A stretch of 24,188 nucleotides of DNA from a virus. Its lineage: Duplodnaviria; Heunggongvirae; Uroviricota; Caudoviricetes. The notes under the pieces were generated by a model. That model saw only the letters and a list, made by a program, of their open reading frames with translations, was not told the DNA's origin and made no database searches. Below, one piece after another: positions 1 through 23,254 of this stretch. Each line of letters begins with the position of its first letter. Position 1 is the first letter of the stretch. The DNA lies in IMG/VR virus record IMGVR_UViG_2531839374_000011; one strand, given 5' to 3'. A program made the translations under genes and the position numbers.

Positions 1-375
<375 letters not shown>

Positions 376-1237
376 CAAACGTATGGCGCAGAACGTGTGT
401 GAGTTGACCGCGAGGGAGCACGATAGACGTTTTTTCCATCACGGATAAAAATTGAAAATAGCAGTCTGTGAAGAAATTGAACCCATCAAGCGCCATGATC
501 TCTTCGTAAAGCTCTTTACTGATAGGGATGCTTCTGTTTTTCTTCCCCTTCGTTCTGACAAAGGTAATTCGGTATTTGGTCACCTGTGAGCGGGTAAGAT
601 TTACGGCTTCACGCTAGCGTGCGCCTGTGCTTAAGCATATCTTAACTACCAGTGCCAGAATTGGGTCCTGACGTTTGCAATCAGCCAGCAATTCAACAAT
701 CTGCTCATGGGTAAGCCATGCCATCTCTTTTTCTGCGATGGTGAATTTTCGCATGTTCTCCAGTGGGTTCGGATACGACCATTCGCCCAGACGGGATAGT
801 TCGCTAAAAACACTACTTAGATAGCTTTGCTCCAGGTTAATGGTGACCGGGCTTGCTCCTTTCTTCCATTTCTCGCTGAAGTAGATCCCGCCTGTCAGGC
901 GTTTATCTCGATAGTGGGCAAACATTTTAGAGGTGAGATCGGTTGCAAGAGGATTGCCCAGAGCGTCAACCATCAACAGCAATTTGTCATAGACATGCTG
1001 CCCAGCTGTCAGAGATTTACCATGTAGTTTGAACCATAGCTCAACCACGTCTTTCAGTGTTCGACGATCCACTGATTCACCCAGCCAGGGCTTTGCTTCG
1101 GTTTCTTCCATCGTGTGGCGCTCAAAAGCCAGTGCTTCGCCTTTGGTGGCGAATTGTTTACGCACACGACGCCCACTTCGTCCGGCGGGGTAACATTCGC
1201 AAAGCCATTTCCCAGTGGTGAGTTTTCGTACTGCCAT
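376..1237 (-). pseudogene. int: P2/186-type tyrosine integrase, disrupted (in-frame TAG at 614-616, 3' end cut by IS911 at 375)
   Basis: N-terminus MAVRKLTTGKWLCECYPAGRSGRRVRKQF... preceded by GGAGGG RBS; track ORFs 614..1393 and 284..583 are in the same frame separated by TAG exactly where the box-I motif TGAR-W-SEA is expected; HVLRHTF (HxxR) is present but the catalytic Tyr region is replaced by the IS911 end. Confidence 0.85.
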
Positions 1238-1425: not shown

Positions 1426-2194
1426 GGTAATGACTCCAACTTACTGATAGTGTTTTATGTTCAGATAATGCCCGATGACCTTGTCATGCAGCTCCACCGA
1501 TTTTGAGAACGACAGTGACTTCCGTCCCAGCCTTGCCAGATGTTGTCTCAGATTCAGATTATGTCGCTCAATGCGCTGAGTGTAACGCTTGCTGATAACG
1601 TGCAGCTTTCCCTTCAGGCGTGATTCATACAGCGGCCAGCCATCCGTCATCCATACCACGACCTCAAAGGCCGACAGCAGGCTCAGAAGACGCTCCAGTG
1701 TGGCCAGAGTGCGTTCACCGAAGACGTGCGCCACAACCGTCCTCCGTATCCTGTCATACGCGTAAAACAGCCAGCGCTGACGTGATTTAGCACCGACGTA
1801 GCCCCACTGTTCGTCCATTTCAGCGCAGACAATCACATCACTGCCCGGTTGTATGCGCGAGGTTACCGACTGCGGCCTGAGTTTTTTAAGTGACGTAAAA
1901 CCGTGTTCGAGGCCAACGCCCATAATGCGTGCACTGGCGCGACATCCGACGCCATTCATGGCCATATCAATGATTTTCTGGTGCGTACCGGGCTGAGAGG
2001 CGGTGTAAGTGAACTGTAGTTGCCATGTTTTACGGCAATGAGAGCAGAGATAGCGCTGATGTCCGGCAGTGCTTTTGCCGTTACGCACCACGCCTTCAGT
2101 AGCGGAGCAGGAAGGACATCTGATGGAAATGGAAGCCACGCAAGCACCTTAAAATCACCATCATACACTAAATCAGTAAGTTGGCAGCATTACC
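1426..2194 (-). mobile_element. IS1, 769 bp, with terminal inverted repeats GGTAATG(A/C)T(C/G)CCAACTTACTGAT
   Basis: Ends match the second IS1 at 20101-20868; internal proteins are identical; one extra base relative to copy 2. Confidence 0.95.
1441..2139 (-). CDS. IS1 transposase as a single fused InsAB' reading frame (232 aa)
   Basis: Continuous ORF ...[21 protein letters not shown]...; versus copy 2 the sequence GGCCTCGAACACGG carries one extra base (plus-strand C at about 1908) that places insA in the insB frame upstream of the A6C slippery run. Confidence 0.85.
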
Positions 2195-2410: not shown

Positions 2411-2986
2411 TTATCTAACATATTTAACTGTTAAACTTATAATTTTACCAATTATTTCAATGTCTTCTATCTTACATTCGAAGGCTCTGTTTCCACCCTC
2501 GACGAAGATTCTTCCACCGGGTAAACGAGTAATGTCACGGATCGTTACTTCGCCATCAATACTTATTACCCATTTACCATCACGTATGTCATCAAATTCT
2601 TTATCACAAATAAATTCAGAATTGTTATCTGTGATGACAAAAGGTTTTTTAAACGTAGAGGGTAGAAATCCCTTATCAAAAATATAAAAACCGTCTTCAC
2701 GCAAGGCACCATCAGATAATACATATTTAGCAACTTCCATAGTATTTGTATTACCTGAAGTTTGCTTTGAACCATGTCCGGTTGTGAGCCAATTAAGCGA
2801 GGTGCCCGTTTCAAGGGCGCACTGGATTACCCATTCTGCTGGGAATGAGTCACGCATGTAGCGTGTGGCGAGTGTACTTTTAGAGATTCCTAAATGATCG
2901 CACAACGCCTGTCGAGTCTTGAATCCATAAGCTTCTACCATGCGCTCTATGGCGCCTCGTCCGCCTTTCTCCAAATTCATGGTCAC
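2411..2986 (-). CDS. cI: Phage 186 CI-like immunity repressor (191 aa), apparently intact
   Basis: EAYGF...LGISKSTLATRYMR...CALETG...NWLTTG N-terminal HTH pattern and ...LPGGRIFVEGG..FECKIEDIEIIG C-terminal pattern as recalled for 186 CI; position between int and a divergently transcribed apl-like gene. Confidence 0.75.
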   Translation of the reverse strand: MTMNLEKGGRGAIERMVEAYGFKTRQALCDHLGISKSTLATRYMRDSFPAEWVIQCALETGTSLNWLTTGHGSKQTSGNTNTMEVAKYVLSDGALREDGFYIFDKGFLPSTFKKPFVITDNNSEFICDKEFDDIRDGKWVISIDGEVTIRDITRLPGGRIFVEGGNRAFECKIEDIEIIGKIISLTVKYVR

Positions 2987-3004
2987 TCCAAGTGAACTTT
3001 TATC

Positions 3005-3033
3005 TTGACGATTTCACTGTGCAATCGTATGTT
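3005..3033 (+). promoter_or_regulatory. Candidate sigma70 promoter, rightward (pR-like), in the cI/apl switch region
   Basis: TTGACG (3005-3010), 17-bp spacer, TATGTT (3028-3033), about 70 bp upstream of the apl-like start. Confidence 0.45.
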
Positions 3034-3105
3034 TATGGTGTTCACAAAATACAAACGATCCGTATTCGTCCTGATTAATCATCATTAAACGAGGAATGTT
3101 GCATC

Positions 3106-3327
3106 ATGAGACCTAACATTTCAATCACTCTTACCACGCCTCATGTGACTATTGAACGCTATAGCGAGCTGACAGGGCTATCCATCGATACCATCAATGA
3201 CATGTTGGCTGATGGACGCCTTATCCGTCACCGTCTGCGCAAAGATAAAAAACGCGAAAAAGTGATGATCAACATAGCAGCAATGACCGTTGATGCGCTT
3301 TCAGAATGCAATCTAAACCTTAATTAG
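3106..3327 (+). CDS. Apl/Cox-like small DNA-binding protein (excisionase/repressor of lysogenic promoter), 73 aa
   Basis: Size, basic C-terminus and position first in the rightward early operon opposite cI; assignment is by synteny with 186 rather than recognised sequence. Confidence 0.5.
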
Positions 3328-3536: not shown

Positions 3537-3608
3537 TGAAGTGGCACACTGAATTTGGCCACCTGAACAGAGGTGATATGCTCACCTCAGAACAACACAG
3601 GTGCTCCA

Positions 3609-4777
<1,169 letters not shown>

Positions 4778-4785
4778 CCACTTCA

Positions 4786-5425
4786 CGCCAGAGTTTTATT
4801 TGAGATCGCAAACAGGGAGGTGGCTTATTACAACATAAGGCAGGAGTTTAATTACTCAACTGAAATTACTGATTTCATGAAAGCGGTATATTTCCTGTAT
4901 CTCAATCGTCACGGTTACCGTGGTTTATGTCGCTATAACAAGAGCGGGCATTTCAACATTCCCTACGGCAATTATAAAAATCCGTATTTCCCTGAAAAAG
5001 AAATTCGCGCATTTGCAGAAAAAGCCCAGCGAGCAACGTTTATCTGCGCCAGCTTTGATGAAACGCTGGCGATGTTGAAGGCGGGGGATGTGGTGTATTG
5101 CGATCCACCGTATGACGGTACGTTTTCCGGCTATCACACTGATGGTTTCACTGAAGATGACCAGTATCACCTAGCATCCGTTCTTGAACATCGGTCATCA
5201 GAAGGACATCCGGTCATTGTTTCTAACAGTGACACATCCCTGATCCGTTCGCTGTATCGCAATTTTACTCACCACTATATCAAGGTAAAACGCAGCATCG
5301 GTGTGGCAGCTGGCGAGGGTAAATCAGCAACAGAAATCATTGCTGTTTCCGGGCCGCGCTGCTGGGTGGGATTTGATTATTCGCGTGGCGTGGATAGTTC
5401 TGCCGTGTACGGAGTACGTGCATGA
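4786..5425 (+). pseudogene. dam: Dam-like N6-adenine DNA methyltransferase lacking its N-terminal about 90 residues (removed by IS911)
   Basis: ...[22 protein letters not shown]...VYCDPPY... aligns with E. coli Dam from about residue 95 (FRRAVLFLYLNRYGYNGLCRYN...VYCDPPY); the frame is open back to the IS911 end at 4785 and the SAM-binding motif I region is absent. Confidence 0.85.
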
Positions 5426-7835
5426 GCCATGCCGATATGAACAACTGCTGCGGCTTTAACGAGGCTGCCGCAGCGTTCTCATGGAACAGCCCGAAAAAGG
5501 CCATTAACCCTTATCTGGACCCGGCGGAAGTTGCGCCGGTTTCTGCGCTTTCAAACCTGATCACTCTGTACGCTGCCGATAACGAGCAGGAACAGTTGCG
5601 CCGCGAGGCACTGAGTGATCAGGTCTGGGAGCGTTATTTTTTTATGAATCACGTGATCCTGTCCAGCACGAAATGGAGCAGGATAAGCTCATTAGCCGGG
5701 CAAAGCTGGCGCATGAGCAGCAGCGTTTTAATCCGGATATGGTCATTCTGGCGGACGTCAACGCCCAGCCTTCCCATATCAGCAAGCCGCTGATGCAACG
5801 TATTGAATACTTCAGCAGCCTGGGCAGGCCAAAGGCTTATTCCCGCTATTTACGTGAGACGATTAAGCCATGTCTGGAACGACTGGAGCATGTACGCGAC
5901 AGCCAGCTATCTGCATCTTTTCGTTTTATGGCAAGCCATGTAGGGCTGGACGGCCTGCTGATTCTGCCTGAAATGAGTCAGGATCAGGTGAAACGCCTGT
6001 CTACCCTTGTCGCTGCGCATATGAGCATGTGCCTTGATGCAGCTTGTGGTGATTTGTATGCCACCGATGACGTTAAGCCAGAAGAAATCCGCAAGACATG
6101 GGAAAAGGTGGCAGCGGAAACCCTGCGTCTGGATGTCATCCCGCCTGCGTTTGAGCAACTCCGTCGGAAAAGAAACCGCCGTAAACCCGTGCCCTATGAA
6201 CTCATTCCGGGTTCGCTGGCGCGTATGTTGTGCGCCGACTGGTGGTACCGGAAATTATGGAAAATGCGTTGCGAATGGCGGGAAGAGCAGTTGCGTGCTG
6301 TCTGCCTGGTCAGCAAAAAAGCATCTCCCTATGTCAGCTATGAAGCCGTGATGCATAAACGTGAGCAGCGCCGCAAGTCATTGGAGTTTTTCCGTTCTCA
6401 TGAACTGGTGAACGAAGAGGGCGACACGCTGGATATGGAAGACGTGGTAAACGCCAGCAGCAGCAACCCGGCGCACCGCCGCAATGAGATGATGGCCTGT
6501 GTTAAAGGTCTGGAGCTTATCGCGGAAATGCGCGGTGACTGCGCCGTTTTCTACACCATTACCTGTCCGTCACGTTTCCATTCCACGCTCAATAACGGCA
6601 GACCAAACCCAACCTGGACAAATGCGACGGTAAGACAAAGCAGCGATTATCTGGTCGGCATGTTTGCTGCATTTCGTAAGGCGATGCACAAAGCCGGGTT
6701 GCGCTGGTATGGCGTGCGGGTGGCTGAGCCGCATCATGACGGTACAGTTCACTGGCACCTGTTGTGTTTTATGCGCAAAAAAGACCGCCGCGCCATTACT
6801 GCATTGTTGCGTAAGTTTGCCATCCGTGAAGACCGCGAGGAACTGGGTAATAACACTGGTCCACGCTTTAAATCTGAGCTGATAAACCCGCGCAAAGGAA
6901 CGCCGACAAGCTACATCGCGAAATACATCAGTAAGAACATTGACGGGCGTGGTCTGGCTGGCGAGATCAGCAAGGAAACGGGTAAATCCCTGCGTGATAA
7001 CGCTGAATACGTTAATCCCTGGGCGTCTCTGCATCGTGTTCAGCAATTCCGCTTCTTTGGTATTCCAGGGCGTCAGGCTTACCGTGAACTGCGGTTGTTG
7101 GCTGGTCAGGCGGCAAGGCAGCAGGGTGACAAAAAAGCAGGTGCGCCGGTACTGGATAACCCGCGCCTTGATGCCATCCTGGCTGCTGCTGATGCTGGCT
7201 GTTTTGCCACCTACATTATGAGGCAGGGCGGCGTGCTGGTTCCTCGCAAATATCACTTGATCAGAACCGCTTATGAAATCAATGAAGAGCCGACCGCCTA
7301 TGGCGATCACGGTATTCGTATTTATGGCATCTGGTCACCCATTGCAGAAGGCAAGATCTGCACTCATGCAGTGAAGTGGAAAATGGTTCGTAAAGCCGTT
7401 GACGTTCAGGAGGCGGCAGCCGACCAGGGCGCTTGCGCCCCTTGGACTCGTGGCAATAACTGTCTCCTTGCTGAAAATTTGAACCAACAGGAGAAAGATA
7501 AATCAGCTGATGGGAACCCCAGAACGGACATTACCAGCATGGATGACAAGGAGTTGCACGATTACCTGCACAGTATGAGCAAAAAAGAGCGCCGGGAACT
7601 GGCAGCAAGGTTACGCCTGGTGAAACCGAAACGGCGTAAAGACTACAAACAGCGAATTACAGACCATCAGCGACTGCAGCTCGTGTATGAGCTGAAGTCC
7701 AGAGGATTTGATGGCAGCGAGAAAGAGGTCGATTTACTCCTTCGCGGAGGCAGTATTCCGTCAGGAGCAGGCCTGCGTATCTTCTATCGGAACCAGCGTT
7801 TGCAGGAAGATGATCAGTGGCGGAACCTGTATTAA
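5422..7835 (+). pseudogene. Replication initiation protein (P2 gpA / 186 RepA rolling-circle endonuclease family) with a -1 frameshift in a T7 run
   Basis: Hallmark [13 protein letters not shown] and [11 protein letters not shown] motifs; N-terminal segment (track ORF 5422..5793) and main body (5673..7835) are in different frames, and both would be joined if the T7 run at 5637-5643 were T8 ([16 protein letters not shown]); start codon overlaps the dam stop (ATGA at 5422-5425). Confidence 0.85.
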
Positions 7836-7927
7836 TTACGCGGGTTAACAATTCGTGCTCTTAATAATACCAGGCATATCAGGCTGATGAACGTAAAAAA
7901 ACGTTTTACATCAGTAAGATTATTATA

Positions 7928-7947
7928 TACTGTAAATATAAACAGTG
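7928..7947. promoter_or_regulatory. LexA (SOS) box taCTGTaaatataaACAGtg
   Basis: Perfect CTGT-N8-ACAG with AT-rich spacer (CTGT 7930-7933, ACAG 7942-7945), about 45 bp upstream of the tum-like start. Confidence 0.7.
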
Positions 7948-7988
7948 GTTATGCATACAGTATTGCGTGTGGTGTCATAGGAGGAAAG

Positions 7989-8177
7989 ATGCAGGACTAT
8001 TTTTTGGAGTCTTTGAAGCTCCAGCGCATTGATTTTTTTCTTAAGCTTGTAGCGGCTAGTGAGTGTAGTGATGAAGAGAAGGGGCTGGCTCTGCAGTGGG
8101 TTTCTGAATTGACTGATGAACTCATGGCAAAAATCAGAACCCACGAATACAACCGCTCAATGGATGTCATCAGCTGA
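7989..8177 (+). CDS. SOS-regulated small protein, candidate Tum-like antirepressor (62 aa)
   Basis: ATG at 7989 with AGGAGG RBS directly downstream of the LexA box; position equivalent to 186 tum at the right end of the early region; function inferred from context only. Confidence 0.45.
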   Translation: MQDYFLESLKLQRIDFFLKLVAASECSDEEKGLALQWVSELTDELMAKIRTHEYNRSMDVIS

Positions 8178-8187
8178 GGTGACTTTT

Positions 8188-8421
8188 ATGCGCATTGAAA
8201 TAATGATCGATAAAGAGCAGAAGATTAGCCAGTCTACCCTGGACGCTCTTGAATCCGAGCTTTACCGCAATCTGCGCCCTCTGTATCCCAAAACGGTAAT
8301 TCGTATCCGCAAAGGTAGCTCTAACGGTGTGGAACTTACTGGATTGCAACTGGACGAAGAAAGAAAACAAGTGATGAAAATTATGCAGAAGGTGTGGGAA
8401 GACGACAGCTGGCTGCATTAA
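8188..8421 (+). CDS. DinI-like protein (77 aa)
   Basis: MRIEIMIDKEQKISQSTLDALESELYRNLRPLYP...KIMQKVWEDDSWL resembles E. coli DinI (MRIEVTIAK...ILQETWESADDWF); GAGG RBS overlaps the stop of the upstream gene. Confidence 0.8.
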   Translation: MRIEIMIDKEQKISQSTLDALESELYRNLRPLYPKTVIRIRKGSSNGVELTGLQLDEERKQVMKIMQKVWEDDSWLH

Positions 8422-8556
8422 GAAACGTTGCTGGCGTCTGAACTAGCTTCTGGCGTCAGCAAGGTTGAACAACGAGCCCTTGCGAGGCGTTAGCTCTGTA
8501 GTGCATGTCTATGCCGCATGAGATCGCATGATCGTTTGAGGATCGTTTTTGCTAAG

Positions 8557-8581
8557 GCCCGCCAGAACTGGCGGGCTTTTG
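8557..8581 (+). terminator. Rho-independent terminator after the tum/dinI-like operon
   Basis: GC-rich hairpin GCCCGCC-AGAACT-GGCGGGC followed by TTTT. Confidence 0.6.
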
Positions 8582-8625
8582 CGTAGATCATGCAGGTGCA
8601 TGAAAACCTCTACATAAAGCGGGCA

Positions 8626-8644
8626 GGCGTGGCGGGGATACGAT
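8626..8644. other. cos-like motif GGCGTGGCGGGGATACGAT (candidate cohesive-end site)
   Basis: First 12 nt identical to the 19-nt cohesive end I recall for 186/P2 (GGCG(T/A)GGCGGGGAAAGCA-); location between the early/right-arm genes and the portal side. Confidence 0.3.
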
Positions 8645-8713
8645 TGCGCGCTAGGTATAAGTGTGTAAAATAATTCCAAAATAAATCATCACTAATGAAG
8701 TGAGAGGGTAATA

Positions 8714-10264
8714 ATGTTAGTCAAGAAAAATAAAAATTATAGTTTATATTTTTTAATTACAAATAATCAACAGATATCTGATTCTGGTAATTATATAAAA
8801 ATAGTCCCATCAAGAAGCGATTGGAATGATTTTGGATATTTGAGTAGAGTCGAAATATCTATTTTTAATAAAAAAGAGTGTAAGGATATAATTTCACTGA
8901 ATGGTTATATTGGTTTTTTGAATTCAGAGGAGGAACGAAATGGAAAAGCAGAACTGATAAGGCGAGTGAAGAAAAAGGAAGAATCTAATTTAAAGGATGA
9001 GGGGTTTAATGATTATTTTGTCATGCTTCAGGATATGAATAATTATCGAAGACTAGTAAGATTTTTTGGGGTGAATGAATCCAAATATATATTAAATTTC
9101 ATTAATGATGTTGTTTCTAAGAAAAGTGACGCTAGTGCAGAGAATTTGAGGAAAAAAGCAATCTCTTCTGATATCTTTAATAAATCTTTCATTAGAGAGT
9201 CTGAGTCGTATTTTACTTTCAAAAATGCAGGAACAGTTCTTTCCGGTATTCAATATGAGGAGTTGGGTAATTTATCACAGCACATCAAGATTAGCTATTC
9301 GAATAAAGTTAATGAAGAAGATGTATCTTATGTTTTTAATTTTGATCACGAGCATGATTTACCAAAAAGAATTTCCATAATTATAGGCGAGAATGGTGTA
9401 GGAAAAAGCCAAACGCTTAGAGAAATCGCATTGGCTGCGATTAAAGGAAAGGATAATTTGGTGGCTGTAGTTGATTCTAACGGTGTGAGCATTGAAGAAC
9501 GAATTCAAATTAGTAGGCTCATTGCTTTTTCTCCAACAAATGAAAGTAAGTGTTCATTTCCAACCGATAAAAGAATAAAATCATTGATATGGTACAAAAG
9601 ATTGACTTTAAATCGTGAATCAAAATCCAAATTAAACTTGAATGATTTAATAGTGCAACTAGCGAGGAGTAACGACGCTATCGGCTATAATCAAAGGTGG
9701 AATATATTTGTTGATGCACTGAGTGTTCTAAATAGTAACAACGATTTAGTAATCAAATGTGGCGGTGAAAATTCACCATTTGTTAAATTAAATGAGCTTA
9801 ATTCTCGAGGCGAAGAATCTAGACTATCATTATATTCTGAAATTATTCTCTCTGGCGAGCCTTTGAGGCTTATTGAAAATAAATGTTACCCTTTGAGTAG
9901 TGGGGAAATATCGTTTATTAAGTTTTGTGTACAAGTCTGTTTGTATATTGAGAATGGGACTCTTCTATTAATAGATGAGCCAGAAACACATCTCCATCCT
10001 TCATTTATTAATAAATTTATGGCATTGCTTGATAATTTATTAGAAAAGACAGGCTCTTCAGCTATCATAGCAACGCATTCGGTTTATCTTGTTCGGGAGG
10101 TTTTTAAGGAGCAAGTGACAATACTCAGAAGACGAGATGATGGGGTAATTGTTAGCGAAAAACCGAGATTGAGTACTTTTGGGGCGAATATAGGAAATAT
10201 CTCATATTTTGTTTTCGGTGAGAGTGAACCAACTCAAATTTTAAATAAAGTAAAAACAATATAA
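8714..10264 (+). CDS. ABC-type P-loop ATPase (516 aa) with about 220-aa uncharacterised N-terminal domain; candidate defence-system ATPase
   Basis: Walker A GENGVGKSQT (near residue 225), signature-like LSSGE, Walker B LLLIDEPETHLHP, H-loop ATHSVYL; strongly AT-rich coding sequence unlike flanking phage genes; GAGAGGG RBS. Confidence 0.75.
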   Translation: MLVKKNKNYSLYFLITNNQQISDSGNYIKIVPSRSDWNDFGYLSRVEISIFNKKECKDIISLNGYIGFLNSEEERNGKAELIRRVKKKEESNLKDEGFNDYFVMLQDMNNYRRLVRFFGVNESKYILNFINDVVSKKSDASAENLRKKAISSDIFNKSFIRESESYFTFKNAGTVLSGIQYEELGNLSQHIKISYSNKVNEEDVSYVFNFDHEHDLPKRISIIIGENGVGKSQTLREIALAAIKGKDNLVAVVDSNGVSIEERIQISRLIAFSPTNESKCSFPTDKRIKSLIWYKRLTLNRESKSKLNLNDLIVQLARSNDAIGYNQRWNIFVDALSVLNSNNDLVIKCGGENSPFVKLNELNSRGEESRLSLYSEIILSGEPLRLIENKCYPLSSGEISFIKFCVQVCLYIENGTLLLIDEPETHLHPSFINKFMALLDNLLEKTGSSAIIATHSVYLVREVFKEQVTILRRRDDGVIVSEKPRLSTFGANIGNISYFVFGESEPTQILNKVKTI

Positions 10265-10345
10265 TTGCAAAGAATATGTCTTGGGATGATGTTGAATCTA
10301 AATATAGCGAGGACTTATCACTTAATGTATTAACTGCGTTGAGAA

Positions 10346-11227
10346 ATGAAATGGGCAATTGAAATGAATAAATTAAAAAGACCTGTTTTTAAAGATTATT
10401 CTGCATTTAAAAAACTATCTGCAAATAAGAGATTAAAACATCATTCTGTTCTGAATGGACAGGATACATTTATACTTAATGCATATAGATCGTACATAAA
10501 GAATAAAGGGTATCTTAATGTCAATTCTTGTGGCGTATTGAGTAACAATATTGCTGAAGCTTTGAGATATTATTATAACAATCCCGCAAAGTGTTTATCT
10601 ATAATTGATGATATAAGAGCAGCTAATTCTAACTCTCTATGTCCAATGTGTGGTTCAATGCATAGCGGGACTTTGGATCATGTTTTACCCAAGGAAAACT
10701 ATCCAGAATTTTCTTTATTCACTAAGAATTTGGTTCCTGCTTGCAAATGTAATACTTTCAAAAGTACTACTATAGCTAATTCTGCAGGCCATCGGATGCT
10801 GCATCCATATTTTGATAATATATTAAAACAAAGATTAATATGTGCTAATTTTTCTAAATTAGGGCGAACACCTACAATTGATGTAAAAATCATAATTGAC
10901 CCAATGTCACCAGAATATAACAATGTTAAGTATCATCTTGATAATGTTGTTATCAAGAATAATATTAAGGGGTATTTGTCTGAACAATGGGAGTCGTTTT
11001 ACTTATATCCTGAGCTTGTTATTAGAGGACTGAATAAGAGTCTTTCTACTTATAGCGATGTATATGAGTTGTTGACTCGCGAGTTGTTGCTGTTGGATGA
11101 AAAACATAAAGGTAAAAATAATTGGAATTCGGTTTTTGTAGCTGGGTTAATTCGACCTGATGTGATTAGGTGGATACTCTGTGAATTACATTTAGGTAAC
11201 AGAAGTCCAGACGGTCGTCTCATATGA
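10346..11227 (+). CDS. HNH-motif nuclease (293 aa from ATG 10346; alternative start at 10364); candidate defence effector
   Basis: CPMCGSMHSGTLDHVLPKENYPEFSLFTKNLVPACKCN = CxxC...DH...N...CxC pattern typical of Zn-bound HNH/His-Me finger nucleases; same AT-rich composition and orientation as the upstream ATPase. Confidence 0.7.
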   Translation: MKWAIEMNKLKRPVFKDYSAFKKLSANKRLKHHSVLNGQDTFILNAYRSYIKNKGYLNVNSCGVLSNNIAEALRYYYNNPAKCLSIIDDIRAANSNSLCPMCGSMHSGTLDHVLPKENYPEFSLFTKNLVPACKCNTFKSTTIANSAGHRMLHPYFDNILKQRLICANFSKLGRTPTIDVKIIIDPMSPEYNNVKYHLDNVVIKNNIKGYLSEQWESFYLYPELVIRGLNKSLSTYSDVYELLTRELLLLDEKHKGKNNWNSVFVAGLIRPDVIRWILCELHLGNRSPDGRLI

Positions 11228-11333: not shown

Positions 11334-12367
11334 TTAAGTAGCTAGTTTATAACTATCAAATTTAACAATGTTCTCACTTACCAATTTATTTATTTCCATC
11401 ATTCTTTTTTGTAACGGTATTAACTCGTTACGTACAAACTCCAGGCTCGCCTTCTCCACATCCCCAAACCCCCGACATTATTAGGCATAATCCCCATCAT
11501 TTGCGGTGGCACACGATGCGCCGCCATCATGTCATCCCGGCTCACGTTCTTGATGTTCAGAAACTCATCCTTCGCCGCGACTTCTGACAACGGGATGATC
11601 TGAAGCCCGTCCTTTTTGCCGTTAGGCGAGTACATAAACAGATTGCGGAAGTTACCTGGTCCTTTGGCGCTTTTCATCGCATTGCGGAGGTTGTTCACAT
11701 CCTCCTGGTTTTGCGCGGCATCGGTCATGTACATGATGAAGCCTGCATGACTGCCGTTAATGTAATACTATCGGCGGAACAGCGTGGCGGACTCGTTGAG
11801 CAGGGCTGACGGAATGGCAGAAAGGTAACCTGGCAGGCCGTAGATCTCTTGGTTGATGTCCGGTTCCATCAGATGAAAGATGCTTCCTTTCGTGAACTGA
11901 TACGGCTGCGTGGTCATGCCGTATTGCACAAACCAGTAGGTATCCAGGTCTAATCCGCGTCGGGTGTATTTTGCCAGAGCAGGCTCAAGAGCGATGACCT
12001 CTCCGAACCGGTTTGTGCGTTTCTCCAGGTAAGCGTTACCAAATACCAGATAATCCTGCACAAAACGTGAAAAAGCCTGCTGGCTGAGCAGCGGGTGAGG
12101 GATGTAGGTACTGATCAGAATGTTGCATTTCACCGCAATTGGTGAACTGTGATGCACGGCGGCGCGGAAGGTGCGCGCCAGTCCGTCAAAACTCACTGGC
12201 GGCTCATACCAGCGATCTGTCTGTACGCATTCCACATAGTCCAGTAGTTCACGGCGGTCCAGAACCGGAACGGGATCGCCGAAGCTGAATGCTTCGGCTG
12301 AAGTCTGGTTTTTATGCTGGGTCTGTTTCGTCGCCGCAGCGCGGTTCTTCTTACTCTTTCCCATCAA
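11334..12367 (-). pseudogene. Portal protein (P2 gpQ family) with in-frame TAG at 11768-11770 and a -1 frameshift in a G4 run at 11463-11466
   Basis: Track ORFs 11768..12367 and 11420..11734 are in the same frame separated by TAG (...ATLFRR*YYINGSHAG...); after ...NNVGGLG the native-looking continuation GDVEKASLEFVRNELIPLQ... is in another frame reachable by adding one G; restored length would be about 344 aa. Confidence 0.8.
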
Positions 12368-20077: not shown

Positions 20078-20155
20078 TTTTTATTTGTTTTCAATTGAGT
20101 GGTAATGCTGCCAACTTACTGATTTAGTGTATGATGGTGATTTTAAGGTGCTTGC

Positions 20156-20431
20156 GTGGCTTCCATTTCCATCAGATGTCCTTCCTGCTCCGCTACTGAA
20201 GGCGTGGTGCGTAACGGCAAAAGCACTGCCGGACATCAGCGCTATCTCTGCTCTCATTGCCGTAAAACATGGCAACTACAGTTCACTTACACCGCCTCTC
20301 AGCCCGGTACGCACCAGAAAATCATTGATATGGCCATGAATGGCGTCGGATGTCGCGCCAGTGCACGCATTATGGGCGTTGGCCTCAACACGGTTTTACG
20401 TCACTTAAAAAACTCAGGCCGCAGTCGGTAA
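20156..20431 (+). CDS. insA: IS1 InsA (91 aa)
   Basis: [43 protein letters not shown]... ending ...[14 protein letters not shown]. Confidence 0.95.
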
Positions 20432-20853
20432 CCTCGCGCATACAACCGGGCAGTGATGTGATTGTCTGCGCTGAAATGGACGAACAGTGGGGCTACGTCG
20501 GTGCTAAATCACGTCAGCGCTGGCTGTTTTACGCGTATGACAGGATACGGAGGACGGTTGTGGCGCACGTCTTCGGTGAACGCACTCTGGCCACACTGGA
20601 GCGTCTTCTGAGCCTGCTGTCGGCCTTTGAGGTCGTGGTATGGATGACGGATGGCTGGCCGCTGTATGAATCACGCCTGAAGGGAAAGCTGCACGTTATC
20701 AGCAAGCGTTACACTCAGCGCATTGAGCGACATAATCTGAATCTGAGACAACATCTGGCAAGGCTGGGACGGAAGTCACTGTCGTTCTCAAAATCGGTGG
20801 AGCTGCATGACAAGGTCATCGGGCATTATCTGAACATAAAACACTATCAGTAA
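20350..20853 (+). CDS. insB: IS1 InsB frame (expressed as InsAB' by -1 frameshift at the A6C run 20407-20413)
   Basis: -1 frame overlapping insA; TTAAAAAAC slippery run present. Confidence 0.9.
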
Positions 20854-20868
20854 GTTGGAGTCATTACC

Positions 20869-21024: not shown

Positions 21025-21114
21025 TTCTTCGCAATGGAGAACTTTTAAGTTTGCAAAATGGAATAATGCGGTATCATTATTGTGAATTTAGCAAAAATGG
21101 GGAGAACTCGAAAA

Positions 21115-21333
21115 ATGATGATTTGCCCACTGTGTGGAAGTGCCGCCCATACTCGCAGCAGTTTTCAGGTATCTTCATTGACCAAAGAGCGTTACAACCA
21201 GTGCCAGAACATTAACTGCAGCCATACTTTTGTTACCCATGAAACTTTTGTTCGTTCGATTGCAACGCCAAAAGAGTCAAATCCGGTTCAGCCGCATCCA
21301 ATGAAATCAGGACAGGTGGCGCTCTCTCTTTGA
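21115..21333 (+). CDS. ogr: Ogr/Delta-family zinc-finger late-gene transcriptional activator (72 aa)
   Basis: MMICPLCGSAAHTRSS...KERYNQCQNINCSHTF... = CxxC...CxxxxC Zn-finger matching the recalled P2 Ogr (CPLCQHAAH...KERYHQCQNVNCSATF). Confidence 0.85.
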   Translation: MMICPLCGSAAHTRSSFQVSSLTKERYNQCQNINCSHTFVTHETFVRSIATPKESNPVQPHPMKSGQVALSL

Positions 21334-21412
21334 CGCTGCCGCCATTTTGTCGCCATCGTTAAAAAACAGTGCTTCTAACATCATGATTTTAAAAGGCATA
21401 AATTTCAGACAA

Positions 21413-21456
21413 CAAAAAACCCATCAACCTTGAACCGAAATGGCGGGGTTGATGGG
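21413..21456 (-). terminator. Rho-independent terminator downstream of ybjL
   Basis: Minus strand: 10-bp stem CCCATCAACC/GGTTGATGGG followed by a T6 run. Confidence 0.55.
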
Positions 21457-21568
21457 CTCCACAAAATGGGGACATCAAAGAAAAGCAGTGGCACTAATTA
21501 AGACTGATGCCCTGCGGAAAAGTTCTGCGGTTGTGCAAAAAAATTTCATTTTCAGGGCAACTTCAGTT

Positions 21569-23254
21569 TTATCCTAATCCTGGCCATACCATGACGATGA
21601 TTGTCCCTGCCAGCGTCAGCAGGACGTTGGCGATTGCGTAGGTGCCCGCATAGCCCAGCGCAGGGATGTTACTGCGAGCTGTATCACTGATGATCTCCAT
21701 TGCCGGCGCGCAGGTGCGTGCGCCCATCATTGCGCCGAACAACAGTGCGCGGTTCATTCGCAATACATAAGCACCGAACAAGAAACAGATAACCACGGGC
21801 ACAAGACTGACAATTAATCCGGCAATCAACATCTGACCGCCAATCGCGCCCAGGCCGTTATTAATACCGCTACCGGCGCTCAGACCAACGCCTGCCATAA
21901 ACACCATCAAGCCGAACTCTTTCACCATGCTTAATGCACCTTGCGGAATGTAACCGAAGGTCGGGTGGTTAGCACGCATAAAGCCCAGCATAATTCCGGC
22001 GAATAACAACCCGGCAGCGTTCCCCATGCCGAAACTGAATGTGCTGAACTGGAAGGTGATCATCCCGATCATCAGCCCAATAACAAAGAAGGCGCAAAAT
22101 GCCAGCAGGTCAGTGACCTGGCTGTGAATCGAGATAAAGCCGATGCGATCGGCGATGGTTTTTACGCGACGGGCATCACCGCTGACTTGTAAAACGTCAC
22201 CTTTGTTAAGCACGACGTTGTCATCTATCGGCATCTCAATCTGGCTACGAATGACGCGGTTAAGGAAGCAACCGTGATCGGTCAACTTCAGTTGTGCGAG
22301 ACGTTTACCTACAGCGTTATGGTTTTTAACGACCACTTCTTCAGTGACGATACGCATGTCGAGAAGGTCACGATCGAAAACTTCTTTACCGTTACGGAAG
22401 CTGGGATCGAGTCGGGCATGGGCGTCGGGATAGCCTACCAACGCTATTTCATCGCCCATTTGTAGCACGGCATCACCGTCTGGATTTGCCAGAATCCCGT
22501 TACGTCGAATACGTTCAATGTAGCAGCCGGTTTGTCGATAAATACCCAGTTCACGCAGATTTTTGCCGTCGGTCCAGGCCACCAGCTCCGGGCCGACGCG
22601 ATAGGCGCGGATCACCGGTAAATAAACCTTACGGTTGGCATCAGTGTCCAGGCCACGTTCGCGGGCGATTTGCTGGGCGCTGGTCTGTAAGTCCTGATGC
22701 TGCAATTTCGGCAAGTAACGCGCACCAACAATCAAACTCACCAGACCGATTAAATAGGTTAAGGCATACCCGAGGCTCAGATTATCCAGTGCCAGTGAGA
22801 GCTGCCTGCTTTCCATGCCGGAATGACGCAGTGTATCGCCAGCACCGACCAGAACCGGTGTCGACGTCATAGAGCCTGCTAACATACCGGCCGTCAGGCC
22901 AATATCCCAGCCAAACAGCTTACCTAACCCTAAGGCGATCACCAGCGCACTGCCAACCATCACCAGTGCTAACATTAGGTAATTTTTCCCATCGCGAAAA
23001 AAAATGGAAAAAAAGTTCGGTCCGGCTTCGACCCCGACGCAGAAAATAAACAGCATAAAGCCAAGATTAAGCGCATCGGTGTTAATGCTGAAATGTTGTT
23101 GGCCTAATAACAGCGATACGACTAAAACGCCAATGGAATTACCCAGTTGGATCGAACCAAGTCGTAACTTTCCGAGACATAGCCCAAGCGCGAGGACCAC
23201 AAATAATAACAGAATGTAATTCCCATTTAACAATTCGGCGACGTTTATATTCAC
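21569..23254 (-). CDS. ybjL: Putative transporter YbjL (AAE-family membrane protein with TrkA-C domains)
   Basis: 561 aa starting [33 protein letters not shown]..., recognised as E. coli YbjL. Confidence 0.85.

Follow-up and report, generated by a model that had tools for sequence, protein, structure and literature searches.

The segment between positions 7905 and 8494 of the window (the whole stretch of viral DNA that was analysed, 24,188 nucleotides in length) is very probably the split-form (tumA-tumB) SOS operon of a 186/Fels-2-type (Peduoviridae) prophage, and it would work as an antirepressor switch. The module is real but ordinary, being a 186/Fels-2-type DNA-damage switch that is intact in a badly decayed E. 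coli-type prophage, and it is already known as the split tum operon, represented by tumA/tumB of PSP3 and STM2728/STM2726.1 of Fels-2. It adjoins the 3' side of replication gene A, which ends at 7835, and is the last transcription unit before cos. An earlier note on this DNA had assigned it the position that tum occupies in 186 and had described the two parts of Tum as separate genes in different frames; both descriptions are accurate. The features of the module and of its surroundings are collected in Table 1.

Table 1. Coordinates of the tum operon, its control elements and associated features in the window
Feature	Position	Strand	Basis or remark
cI, 186-type immunity repressor, presumed TumA target	2411-2980	-	Pfam
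SOS promoter (186 p95 equivalent), putative -35 hexamer TTTACA	7905-7910	+	A-run precedes
LexA operator, whole	7928-7962	+	Two overlapping boxes
LexA box 1, TACTGTAAATATAAACAGTG	7928-7947	+	Begins with the putative -10 hexamer TACTGT
LexA box 2, CAGTGGTTATGCATACAGTA	7943-7962	+	Shares 5 nt with box 1
Shine-Dalgarno AGGAGG of tumA	7979-7984	+	Sequence; TAGGAGG(G/A)AA(A/G)ATG kept in relatives
tumA, gene for a 62-aa acidic antirepressor (homologous to the 186 Tum N-terminal half)	7989-8177	+	Profile links, conservation
Shine-Dalgarno GAGGTGA of tumB	8176-8182	+	Overlaps the tumA stop codon (8175-8177)
tumB, 77-aa DinI-family gene (equivalent of the 186 Tum C-terminal half and PSP3 TumB)	8188-8421	+	Pfam DinI
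Conserved hairpin and invariant tail, GGTTGAACAACGAG-N5-GCGAGGCGTTAG	8424-8494	+	Directly 3' of the operon
cos region	8498-8654	+	Right genome end at 8625; cohesive-end sequence GGCGTGGCGGGGATACGAT at 8626-8644
Defence genes PDC-M01A/B	8714-11227		About 300 nt past tumB in the integrated prophage

A near-consensus LexA box had been noted directly upstream of the 62-aa open reading frame, and this box (box 1) is present, with three mismatches to the 20-nt consensus TACTGTATATATATACAGTA and an exact CTGT-N8-ACAG core. It is the sole match of its grade in the window, none of 100 dinucleotide shuffles yielded any, and a LexA motif is located upstream of tumA in 33 of 35 related loci. The operator is double, however, and not single as previously described, with a second box that the first reading had missed overlapping the first one. 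By itself box 2 is a poor LexA site, with six mismatches and GTG replacing CTG. Over positions 7930-7960 the two boxes are offset by 15 nt, follow the pattern CTG-N10-CAG-N12-CAG and meet in the junction ACAGTGG; this pattern is found in 24 of the 35 tumA loci, compared with two occurrences in 252 kb of background. They can be aligned, position by position, with the 33-35-nt double operators of ColE1 cea, of pesticin pst and of the promoter of a Klebsiella bacteriocin, and at box 2 Fels-2 and ColE1 cea agree in 20 of 20 positions. Judged from these alignments, boxes 1 and 2 form a colicin-type double overlapping SOS operator. The likeness is confined to the operator, with the genes controlled in colicin and tum operons being unrelated, and in the colicin promoters the boxes are positioned downstream of the -10 hexamer, whereas in the window the putative -10 hexamer is located within box 1. 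Colicin double boxes are bound by two LexA dimers, and such operators result in very tight repression of a lethal function (PMC2994835); by this precedent, occupancy of the tum operator by two LexA dimers would be expected. A literature search on the double SOS box at tum promoters and on tumA/tumB returned nothing relevant. The double SOS box by which colicin genes are silenced is also the tum operator in this clade.

A sigma-70 scan of positions 7700-8800 called no promoter, because TACTGT fits the generic hexamer at just three of six positions, so that the case for a promoter here comes from conservation and from the annotation of 186. TTTACA or one of its near variants (TTCACA, TTCAAT) is found 17 nt before TACTGT in nearly all related loci, separated from it by a spacer of variable sequence, and the annotated p95 promoter of 186 has the same layout (TTCACA-18 nt-TACTGT). 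The -35 and -10 hexamers are accordingly putative assignments, in which the LexA box overlaps the -10 hexamer as in the 186 Tum/PSP3 TumA family, the layout TTTACA-17 nt-TACTGT being present in the window and kept across loci. Regulation of the window operator by LexA is predicted; induction of DuoHS, which has the same operator, is blocked by lexA(Ind-) (PMC12055606). It is highly unlikely that the LexA-like sequence lacks operator function, or that the SOS promoter mainly serves the defence genes PDC-M01A/B by read-through. Read-through would be in keeping with the p95 transcript of 186, which partly runs on into orf97, and with the short distance of just about 300 nt between tumB and the defence genes in the integrated prophage. 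Against these explanations, the operator is kept across genera while its flanks vary, DuoHS induction is blocked when LexA is of the Ind- type, and a strong conserved hairpin, cos and a GC-rich stem-loop with a T-run (GCCCGCCAGAACTGGCGGGCTTTTG) are all located between tumB and the defence genes. The cargo genes beyond cos also vary between relatives and therefore fall outside the conserved unit.

The conserved hairpin that follows the operon has a 17-bp stem in which eight pairs are changed on both sides across 18 sequences, and the element is found in 186 and twice in PSP3. An Rfam search of positions 7800-8750 gave no match. The element is possibly a 3' end, a processing element or a cassette boundary. 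With regard to cos, positions 8560-8625 align to the final bases of the linear genomes of 186 and PSP3, in a block that is kept in most related loci, and the alignment of the cos sequence to the right-hand ends of these two genomes covers positions 8611-8644. The GC-rich stem-loop at approximately 8557-8583 was rejected as the operon's own terminator, as it sits within the conserved cos block; it may still terminate transcription, though not specifically for this operon.

The start codon of tumA is the ATG at 7989 and not at 7990, and the strong ribosome-binding site ascribed to the gene is there in the form of an AGGAGG. A longer, 96-aa reading from the ATG at 7887 was rejected, as it begins upstream of the promoter and operator. 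The tumA frame is open in 31 of 31 relatives tested, with the other five frames carrying 46-190 stops in total, and dN/dS values of 0.02-0.13 relative to the window point to strong purifying selection on the gene among relatives. The encoded protein is acidic (pI 4.6) and is predicted by AlphaFold2 to be a two-helix hairpin (pLDDT 90.9), for which a Foldseek search against the PDB returned generic or designed helical hairpins alone, none of them with E ≤ 0.001. Pfam, PADLOC and PDB sequence searches with TumA gave no match. The resemblance of the 62-aa product to 186 Tum suggested previously is not found by BLASTP, which gave no alignment between the two proteins, but it does hold at the level of PHROG and HMM profiles. 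TumA matches phrog_698 (3.6e-38), phrog_8554 (2.4e-8) and phrog_1993 (2e-3), and residues 1-69 of 186 Tum match the same columns of these profiles (6.4e-6, 3.2e-12 and 1.9e-23, respectively). An HMM constructed from 27 TumA relatives places 186 Tum as the top foreign match among 477 six-frame pieces (E 8.8e-4) and gives a marginal value for PSP3 TumA (E 1.7). Sequence identity is approximately 20-22% to these proteins, being about 22% to PSP3 TumA and about 20% to the 186 Tum N-terminal half. At the profile level, TumA is thus assigned as remotely homologous to this half of Tum.

TumA is 61/62 identical both to Fels-2 STM2728 and to DuoHS ECHS_RS04495, and the names given to the family in databases are essentially all "hypothetical protein" (482 clusters, no Pfam family). 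The negative BLASTP result, the lack of a Pfam or PDB match and this uninformative naming would also fit an unrelated small SOS-induced protein with a fortuitous resemblance to the Tum N terminus, particularly as short helical proteins readily give weak profile matches. Such an explanation is scarcely credible, however, considering that the PHROG matches are reciprocal and fall on the same columns, with E values for phrog_8554 down to 1e-8 and 1e-12, and that position, promoter layout and downstream DinI partner are all shared with 186 and PSP3. The finding that deletion of the 61/62-identical DuoHS gene abolishes induction (PMC12055606) leaves it close to refuted. As an antirepressor, TumA is proposed by homology to bind CI and lift repression; the requirement for SOS induction in the literature is that of the 61/62-identical DuoHS gene alone, and CI binding has been demonstrated only for 186 Tum, according to Shearwin et al. 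(1998) as cited in PMC3121763.

The downstream gene had been called a translationally coupled DinI homologue. The DinI assignment is secure, with TumB matching Pfam DinI (PF06183) over profile positions 1-63 of 63 with an E value of 6.6e-23 and a score of 81.3 bits (cut-off 24.2), and matching E. coli DinI (PDB ID 1GHH) with an E value of 2.7e-6. TumB covers positions 71-148 of the 151-position profile phrog_189 and aligns with residues 71-145 of 186 Tum (41% identity, E 3e-24), in agreement with the proposal that the C-terminal part of 186 Tum is DinI-like. The protein is 77/77 identical to its Fels-2 and DuoHS counterparts. From its membership in the DinI family, TumB presumably acts on RecA filaments. 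The gene is missing from 13 of 33 related loci and broken in three, and is therefore not needed for the switch. Deletion of the Gifsy dinI homologues had no effect on induction (Lemire et al. 2011, PMC3121763). Coupling of the two genes is plausible from the sequence of the junction, where the reading frames differ and are separated by 10 nt with no overlap, the gap being 9-12 nt in relatives. The sigma-70 scan also flagged a terminator-like hairpin at 8166-8183, which covers the stop codon of tumA along with the Shine-Dalgarno sequence of tumB; it was considered as a coupling or attenuation element and rejected as incidental, given that it is not kept in relatives, where the junctions differ. 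The DinI-like partner is dispensable in many lineages.

Among the closest known systems is DuoHS (E. coli HS; ECHS_RS04495 tum and ECHS_RS04500 DinI-like), which occupies the same chromosomal site, rcdA-ybjL. The two share the promoter and double SOS box, with 91 of 100 upstream bases identical, two base differences in the box 2 spacer and a single substitution in TumA (T51S). Unlike the defective prophage of the window, DuoHS is intact and inducible, and the cargo genes past tumB differ. In DuoHS an in-frame deletion of tum (the 62-aa ECHS_RS04495) abolishes mitomycin C induced lysis and virion foci, and lexA(Ind-) likewise abolishes mitomycin C induction (Nat Microbiol 2025, PMC12055606). 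Experimental demonstration of LexA dependence and of the requirement for the gene thus comes from the near-identical DuoHS alone, and the predicted switch in the window is described here by its anatomy, homologies and conservation. Fels-2 (Salmonella LT2; STM2728/STM2726.1) has the same double SOS box and genome position, but its CI is only 38-39% identical to the window CI, an orf97-like gene is located between tumB and cos, and the conserved hairpin element is absent. Bunny and co-workers are said to have reported, on genetic grounds and in 2002, both the LexA dependence of Fels-2 and the requirement of the gene for its induction. The lethality of a lexA-null mutation is ascribed to the Fels-2 tum homologue in the account of Bunny et al. 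(2002) cited in PMC3121763. Both Fels-2 and PSP3 have tum split in two, and in PSP3 the upstream half has the antirepressor activity (Lemire et al. 2011, PMC3121763).

PSP3 shows the same split arrangement between gene A and cos, in which a DinI-like gene comes after a small antirepressor gene. The description of tumA in its record reads "similar to 5' end 186 tum; UV induction of prophage", and tumB is annotated there too. In contrast to the window, PSP3 has a single LexA box, and its tumA and tumB are in the same frame and 3 nt apart. The p95-tum unit of 186 (Tum, 146 aa) resembles the window in its LexA-repressed promoter with the -10 hexamer inside the box, its genome position and its non-cleavable CI target, but has the two halves fused in one frame, a single LexA box, and orf97 following the gene. 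The 186 record lists separate in-frame tum products, the smallest of which is DinI-like, has 76 aa and "modulates SOS induction." The dinI-gfoA/gftA operons of Gifsy-1/2/3 (Salmonella; Lemire et al. 2011, PMC3121763) are similarly LexA-controlled, and in them a DinI homologue is paired with a small antirepressor that acts in trans on a non-cleavable repressor; they differ in that dinI comes first, the phages are lambdoid, and the antirepressor and repressor families are unrelated.

The intact CI-like repressor reported earlier is confirmed by matches to Phage_CI_repr (2.7e-33) and Phage_CI_C (5.3e-29), with no S24 peptidase domain. The window CI is by its domains of the 186 type and not self-cleaving. 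It is identical to DuoHS CI at 181 of 189 residues, and its gene differs at one base from that of the intact UPEC-245U prophage. The pR region that it would repress is at about 2980-3110. The window prophage as a whole is 99.7-99.9% identical to this intact prophage, with one substitution in the SOS region (7836-8421). The damage comprises four 1-nt deletions together with two copies each of IS911 and IS1. Int is without its C terminus, the early operon is cut by replacement of cII to dam with IS911, frameshifts affect gene A and the portal gene, and tail genes have been lost. This decay is of very recent date, and an intact module of approximately 500 bp is therefore expected by chance and is no sign of selection; by our own arithmetic, four point indels in 15.3 kb would spare a 0.5-kb module about nine times in ten. 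The earlier view that an SOS-responsive circuit was kept despite decay is thus correct as to the sequence but carries no sign of selection. The near identity to UPEC-245U, the short list of lesions and the loss of essential parts from Int to the portal gene would all agree with the module being an inert leftover, intact only because the prophage was wrecked recently, without consequence in its host and not selected, an explanation whose chances fall just short of even. This explanation concerns the consequence of the module and not its identity, and is compatible with a split tum operon. However, as no damage has reached CI, apl or the operator region, CI immunity could still be lost in an SOS-dependent manner, or the module could act in trans on a related prophage. 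Little is left of what CI would release, and in this defective prophage the circuit can at most lift CI repression or immunity, yielding no phage; it possibly acts in trans on related prophages.

Taking the module as a split tum operon, LexA would in the uninduced state occupy the double overlapping SOS operator predicted from the sequence, and since box 1 covers the -10 hexamer the promoter would be tightly shut. On DNA damage, as suggested by homology and the literature, RecA-stimulated cleavage of LexA would open the promoter and the two small proteins would be produced. TumA, as an acidic protein with a predicted helical hairpin, would bind the non-cleavable 186-type CI and remove it from its operators, and in an intact phage this loss of CI would release the early lytic promoter and lead to induction. 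TumB would serve as an accessory modulator, presumably acting on RecA filaments and tuning the strength or duration of the SOS signal.

In different phages, TumA proteins that are 98-100% identical are paired with CIs that are just 38-57% identical overall, examples being Fels-2, Cartapus and vB_EcoM-813R9. The CIs paired with near-identical TumA have in common a near-invariant motif of the DNA-binding domain, SKST[LM]A.R..RD.FPA[ED]W[VI]IQC, and across 13 phages TumA identity tracks the identity of the CI N-terminal domain (Spearman 0.84) and not that of the rest of CI (0.18). From these correlations it may be proposed, tentatively and with the balance of probability against it, that TumA of the Fels-2/DuoHS type is a broad-range antirepressor, which would recognise the conserved N-terminal DNA-binding domain of CI and not an immunity-specific surface. 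One TumA sequence serves many divergent CIs, which gives a hint at the binding place on CI and at possible cross-induction between prophages.

The module confirms textbook biology, in which 186-like prophages sense DNA damage via a LexA-repressed antirepressor and not by self-cleavage of the repressor. It also has value for annotation, as a "hypothetical protein" becomes the induction switch of this prophage type, for which 1281 of 5426 complete E. coli genomes gave a match to a query that also took in the 3' end of gene A. If the broad-range reading of TumA were true, a dead prophage in which tumA is retained under a double SOS operator of colicin grade could influence other phages, with DNA damage triggering co-resident heteroimmune Peduoviridae prophages or stripping them of their immunity, and such cross-talk would resemble that shown for the Gifsy phages.

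The earlier note had described a near-consensus LexA box followed by a small tum-like gene and a DinI-like gene under SOS control, and this observation is confirmed because the box, both open reading frames, the DinI match and the differing frames were all found. Box 1, the LexA box after replication gene A, has 3 mismatches to the 20-nt LexA consensus and is the single match in the window, with 0 of 100 shuffles giving one. The 62-codon frame, here called tumA, has the ribosome-binding site claimed for it, whereas its start codon is shifted by one base, to 7989. The DinI homologue, tumB, follows after 10 bases in a different frame, and the antirepressor and DinI parts are indeed separate genes. 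Its product matches the DinI family over the full length (Pfam, 6.6e-23) and the E. coli DinI structure 1GHH at 2.7e-6. The two genes may be translationally coupled, the sole basis for which is their 10-nt spacing; a hairpin at the junction (8166-8183) is not conserved among relatives.

Features of the SOS module and of the surrounding prophage
Feature	Position	Strand	Remarks
IS911 end	1-376		cuts off integrase C-terminus at window edge
IS1	1426-2194		simple insertion between int and cI; 9-bp target duplication AAGCAAAAG
IS911, full copy	3537-4782		in place of cII 3' end through dam 5' end
Replication gene A (P2/186-type), 3' end	stop at 7835	+	read within 7600-8800
LexA box 1, TACTGTAAATATAAACAGTG	7928-7947	+	intergenic, after gene A
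LexA box 2, CAGTGGTTATGCATACAGTA	7943-7962		directly overlaps box 1
tumA, 62 codons	ATG 7989, stop 8175-8177	+	AGGAGG upstream
tumB, 77 codons	ATG 8188, stop 8419-8421	+	GAGGTGA upstream, overlapping tumA stop codon
Block 1, ~70 nt	8424-8494		17-bp hairpin, then invariant GGTTGAACAACGAG-N5-GCGAGGCGTTAG; directly after tum operon
Block 2, cos region	8498-8654		8611-8625 aligned with last bases of linear 186 and PSP3 genomes; then cohesive-end-like GGCGTGGCGGGGATACGAT
AAA-ATPase and HNH-type genes	8714-11227		PADLOC candidate system PDC-M01 (PDC-M01A/B), Septu-like
Single-base deletions vs intact UPEC-245U	5643 (gene A), 10251 (ATPase), 11293, 11468 (portal)		
IS1, second copy	about 20101-20868		accompanies absence of every tail and baseplate gene
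ogr	21082-21333		retained
RybB sRNA gene	21411-21489	-	Rfam RF00110, 105 bits; immediately beyond prophage end
ybjL	21569-23254	-	next after RybB

TumB corresponds to the C-terminal part of coliphage 186 Tum (146 aa), with 41% identity over Tum residues 71-145 (E 3e-24). The likeness proposed between the 62-aa product and 186 Tum escaped BLASTP, which gave no alignment, but emerged with PHROG profiles and an HMM. The protein matches phrog_698 (3.6e-38), phrog_8554 (2.4e-8) and phrog_1993 (2e-3), and residues 1-69 of 186 Tum match the same columns of these profiles (6.4e-6, 3.2e-12 and 1.9e-23, respectively). An HMM of TumA from 27 relatives had 186 Tum as its top foreign match among 477 six-frame pieces (E 8.8e-4). 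The 62-aa protein and the N-terminal part of Tum are thus connected at the profile level. TumA is acidic (12 D+E vs 7 K+R, pI 4.6) and is predicted by AlphaFold2 to fold into a hairpin of two helices (2-23 and 28-61, pLDDT 90.9); a Pfam search found no family for it and a fold search with the model added nothing informative.

The system itself is already known from 186 tum, PSP3 tumA/tumB, Fels-2 and DuoHS, the intact prophage of E. coli HS. In the PSP3 GenBank record the two genes are tumA, annotated "similar to 5' end 186 tum; UV induction of prophage", and tumB; their Fels-2 counterparts, STM2728 and STM2726.1, are identical to TumA and TumB of the window at 61/62 and 77/77 residues. In both phages tum is split in two, and in PSP3 the antirepressor activity belongs to the upstream gene (Lemire et al. 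2011, PMC3121763). For DuoHS, identity to the window is 61/62 for TumA, 77/77 for TumB, 181/189 for the repressor CI and 91/100 bases for the upstream region, both LexA boxes included. The tum gene of the DuoHS authors is ECHS_RS04495 (supplement of PMC12055606), listed in RefSeq as a "hypothetical protein" of 62 aa with a DinI-like gene behind it; the antirepressor gene still carries that name in public annotation. DuoHS with an in-frame tum deletion, or in a lexA(Ind-) background, no longer causes lysis or forms virions upon mitomycin C treatment (PMC12055606, Extended Data Fig. 1), and because these genetics concern essentially the same module, the reading of the region as an SOS induction switch is supported.

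Scanning relatives with one genome per species gave 33 loci, with tumA in Escherichia, Citrobacter, Klebsiella, Enterobacter, Serratia, Pantoea, Erwinia, Tatumella and others. No stop interrupts the tumA frame in any of the 31 loci of comparable length, compared with 46-190 stops in total in the other five frames, and dN/dS relative to the window is 0.02-0.13, which indicates a real and constrained gene. A complete tumB lies 9-12 nt after tumA in 17 of the 33 species loci and is broken in 3; in the other 13 none was found within 1.5 kb. Phage 186 has its DinI-like part in two forms, one fused to the antirepressor and the other annotated as a 76-aa product of its own that "modulates SOS induction". 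This, together with the absence of tumB from 13 loci, fits a modular arrangement in which TumA would be the switch and the DinI module an optional, accessory modulator.

The operator is double in the window and single in 186 and PSP3. The motif CTG-N10-CAG-N12-CAG precedes tumA at 24 of 35 loci (background, 2 double motifs in 252 kb); nine loci, mostly of Pantoea, Erwinia and Tatumella, have a single LexA box, and two have none, one of them truncated at a contig end and the other containing a decayed gene. TTTACA is conserved exactly 17 nt upstream of TACTGT across loci, with a variable spacer sequence. Since this layout mirrors 186 p95 as annotated (TTCACA-18 nt-TACTGT), LexA on box 1 would occlude the -10 hexamer. 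Because a generic promoter scan called no promoter at the tumA operator, we can only infer an SOS promoter here. In Fels-2, box 2 of the tum operator, CAGTGGTTATATGTACAGTA, agrees at 20/20 positions with its counterpart in the ColE1 cea operator. Searched against plasmids, a 35-42-nt stretch of the Fels-2 operator matched >1100 records, mostly small mobilizable plasmids. The matches inspected sit in promoters of colicin E1 (cea), pesticin and a Klebsiella bacteriocin, whose operators align base for base with the tum operator over ~35 nt. The likeness between colicin plasmids and P2-like phages may reflect either a constraint common to both or an operator exchanged between them.

Two conserved blocks were found downstream of tumB. 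The stem of block 1 shows paired changes that retain pairing in 8 of its 17 pairs (18 sequences). The block lies directly 3' of tumA where tumB is missing and after orf97 in 186, and PSP3 carries two copies that flank a cargo gene. Block 1 lacks a U-tract and matches no Rfam family; it may mark the boundary of cargo cassettes or signal mRNA 3'-end formation or processing. The cos region contains a GC-rich stem-loop with a T-run at ~8557-8583. No transcription unit thus lies between the SOS operon and the right genome end, the same arrangement as in 186. The PDC-M01 genes, a two-gene candidate defence system between cos and the portal gene, belong to the variable cargo.

The window comes from an E. 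coli-type chromosome in which a 186-like (Peduoviridae) prophage has inserted between rcdA and rybB/ybjL, the site also used by DuoHS; RybB and ybjL adjoin the prophage end. This prophage shares 99.7-99.9% identity with the intact one of strain UPEC-245U and ~97% with DuoHS. The full IS911 substitutes ~1.8 kb of the early operon (cII 3' end, fil, DUF5347, DUF2732, traR/dksA-like genes and dam 5' end), and baseplate, tail-fibre, sheath, tube and tape-measure genes were lost at the second IS1. Both element pairs are inverted (IS911, 99.7% identical over the shared part; IS1, 99.9%). Frameshifts split gene A (5422-5793 and 5673-7835) and the portal gene (11420-11734 and 11768-12367), and the 1-nt deletion in the PDC-M01 ATPase acts near its 3' end (516 aa vs 549 aa in the intact relative). 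With these insertions, frameshifts and tail-gene losses the element is dead as a phage. Between it and the intact relative, the SOS region (7836-8421) shows a single base difference, at 8340; because the damage is recent, an intact 0.5-kb module is the chance expectation.

The CI-like repressor of the window (cI, 2411-2980, minus strand) is of the 186 type, with Phage_CI_repr and Phage_CI_C and no peptidase domain. Phages with TumA 98-100% identical to that of the window have a CI only 38-57% identical, the divergence being concentrated in the linker and the C-terminal (oligomerisation) domain. The N-terminal DNA-binding (HTH) domain retains a near-invariant SKST[LM]A.R..RD.FPA[ED]W[VI]IQC; the corresponding stretch of 186, PSP3 and the Yersinia phages is different. 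Across 13 phages, TumA identity correlates with that of CI residues 8-82 (Spearman 0.84, p 4e-4) and not with that of the rest of CI (0.18). With so few phages and kinship ignored, the correlation is no more than a hint that TumA contacts the DNA-binding domain of CI and may act on several immunity types. What is added to the known system is modest: a double operator of the colicin type, a tumB that can be dispensed with, one TumA paired with many CIs, and the hairpin conserved downstream. None of these was found in the literature searched, which lacked most subscription papers.
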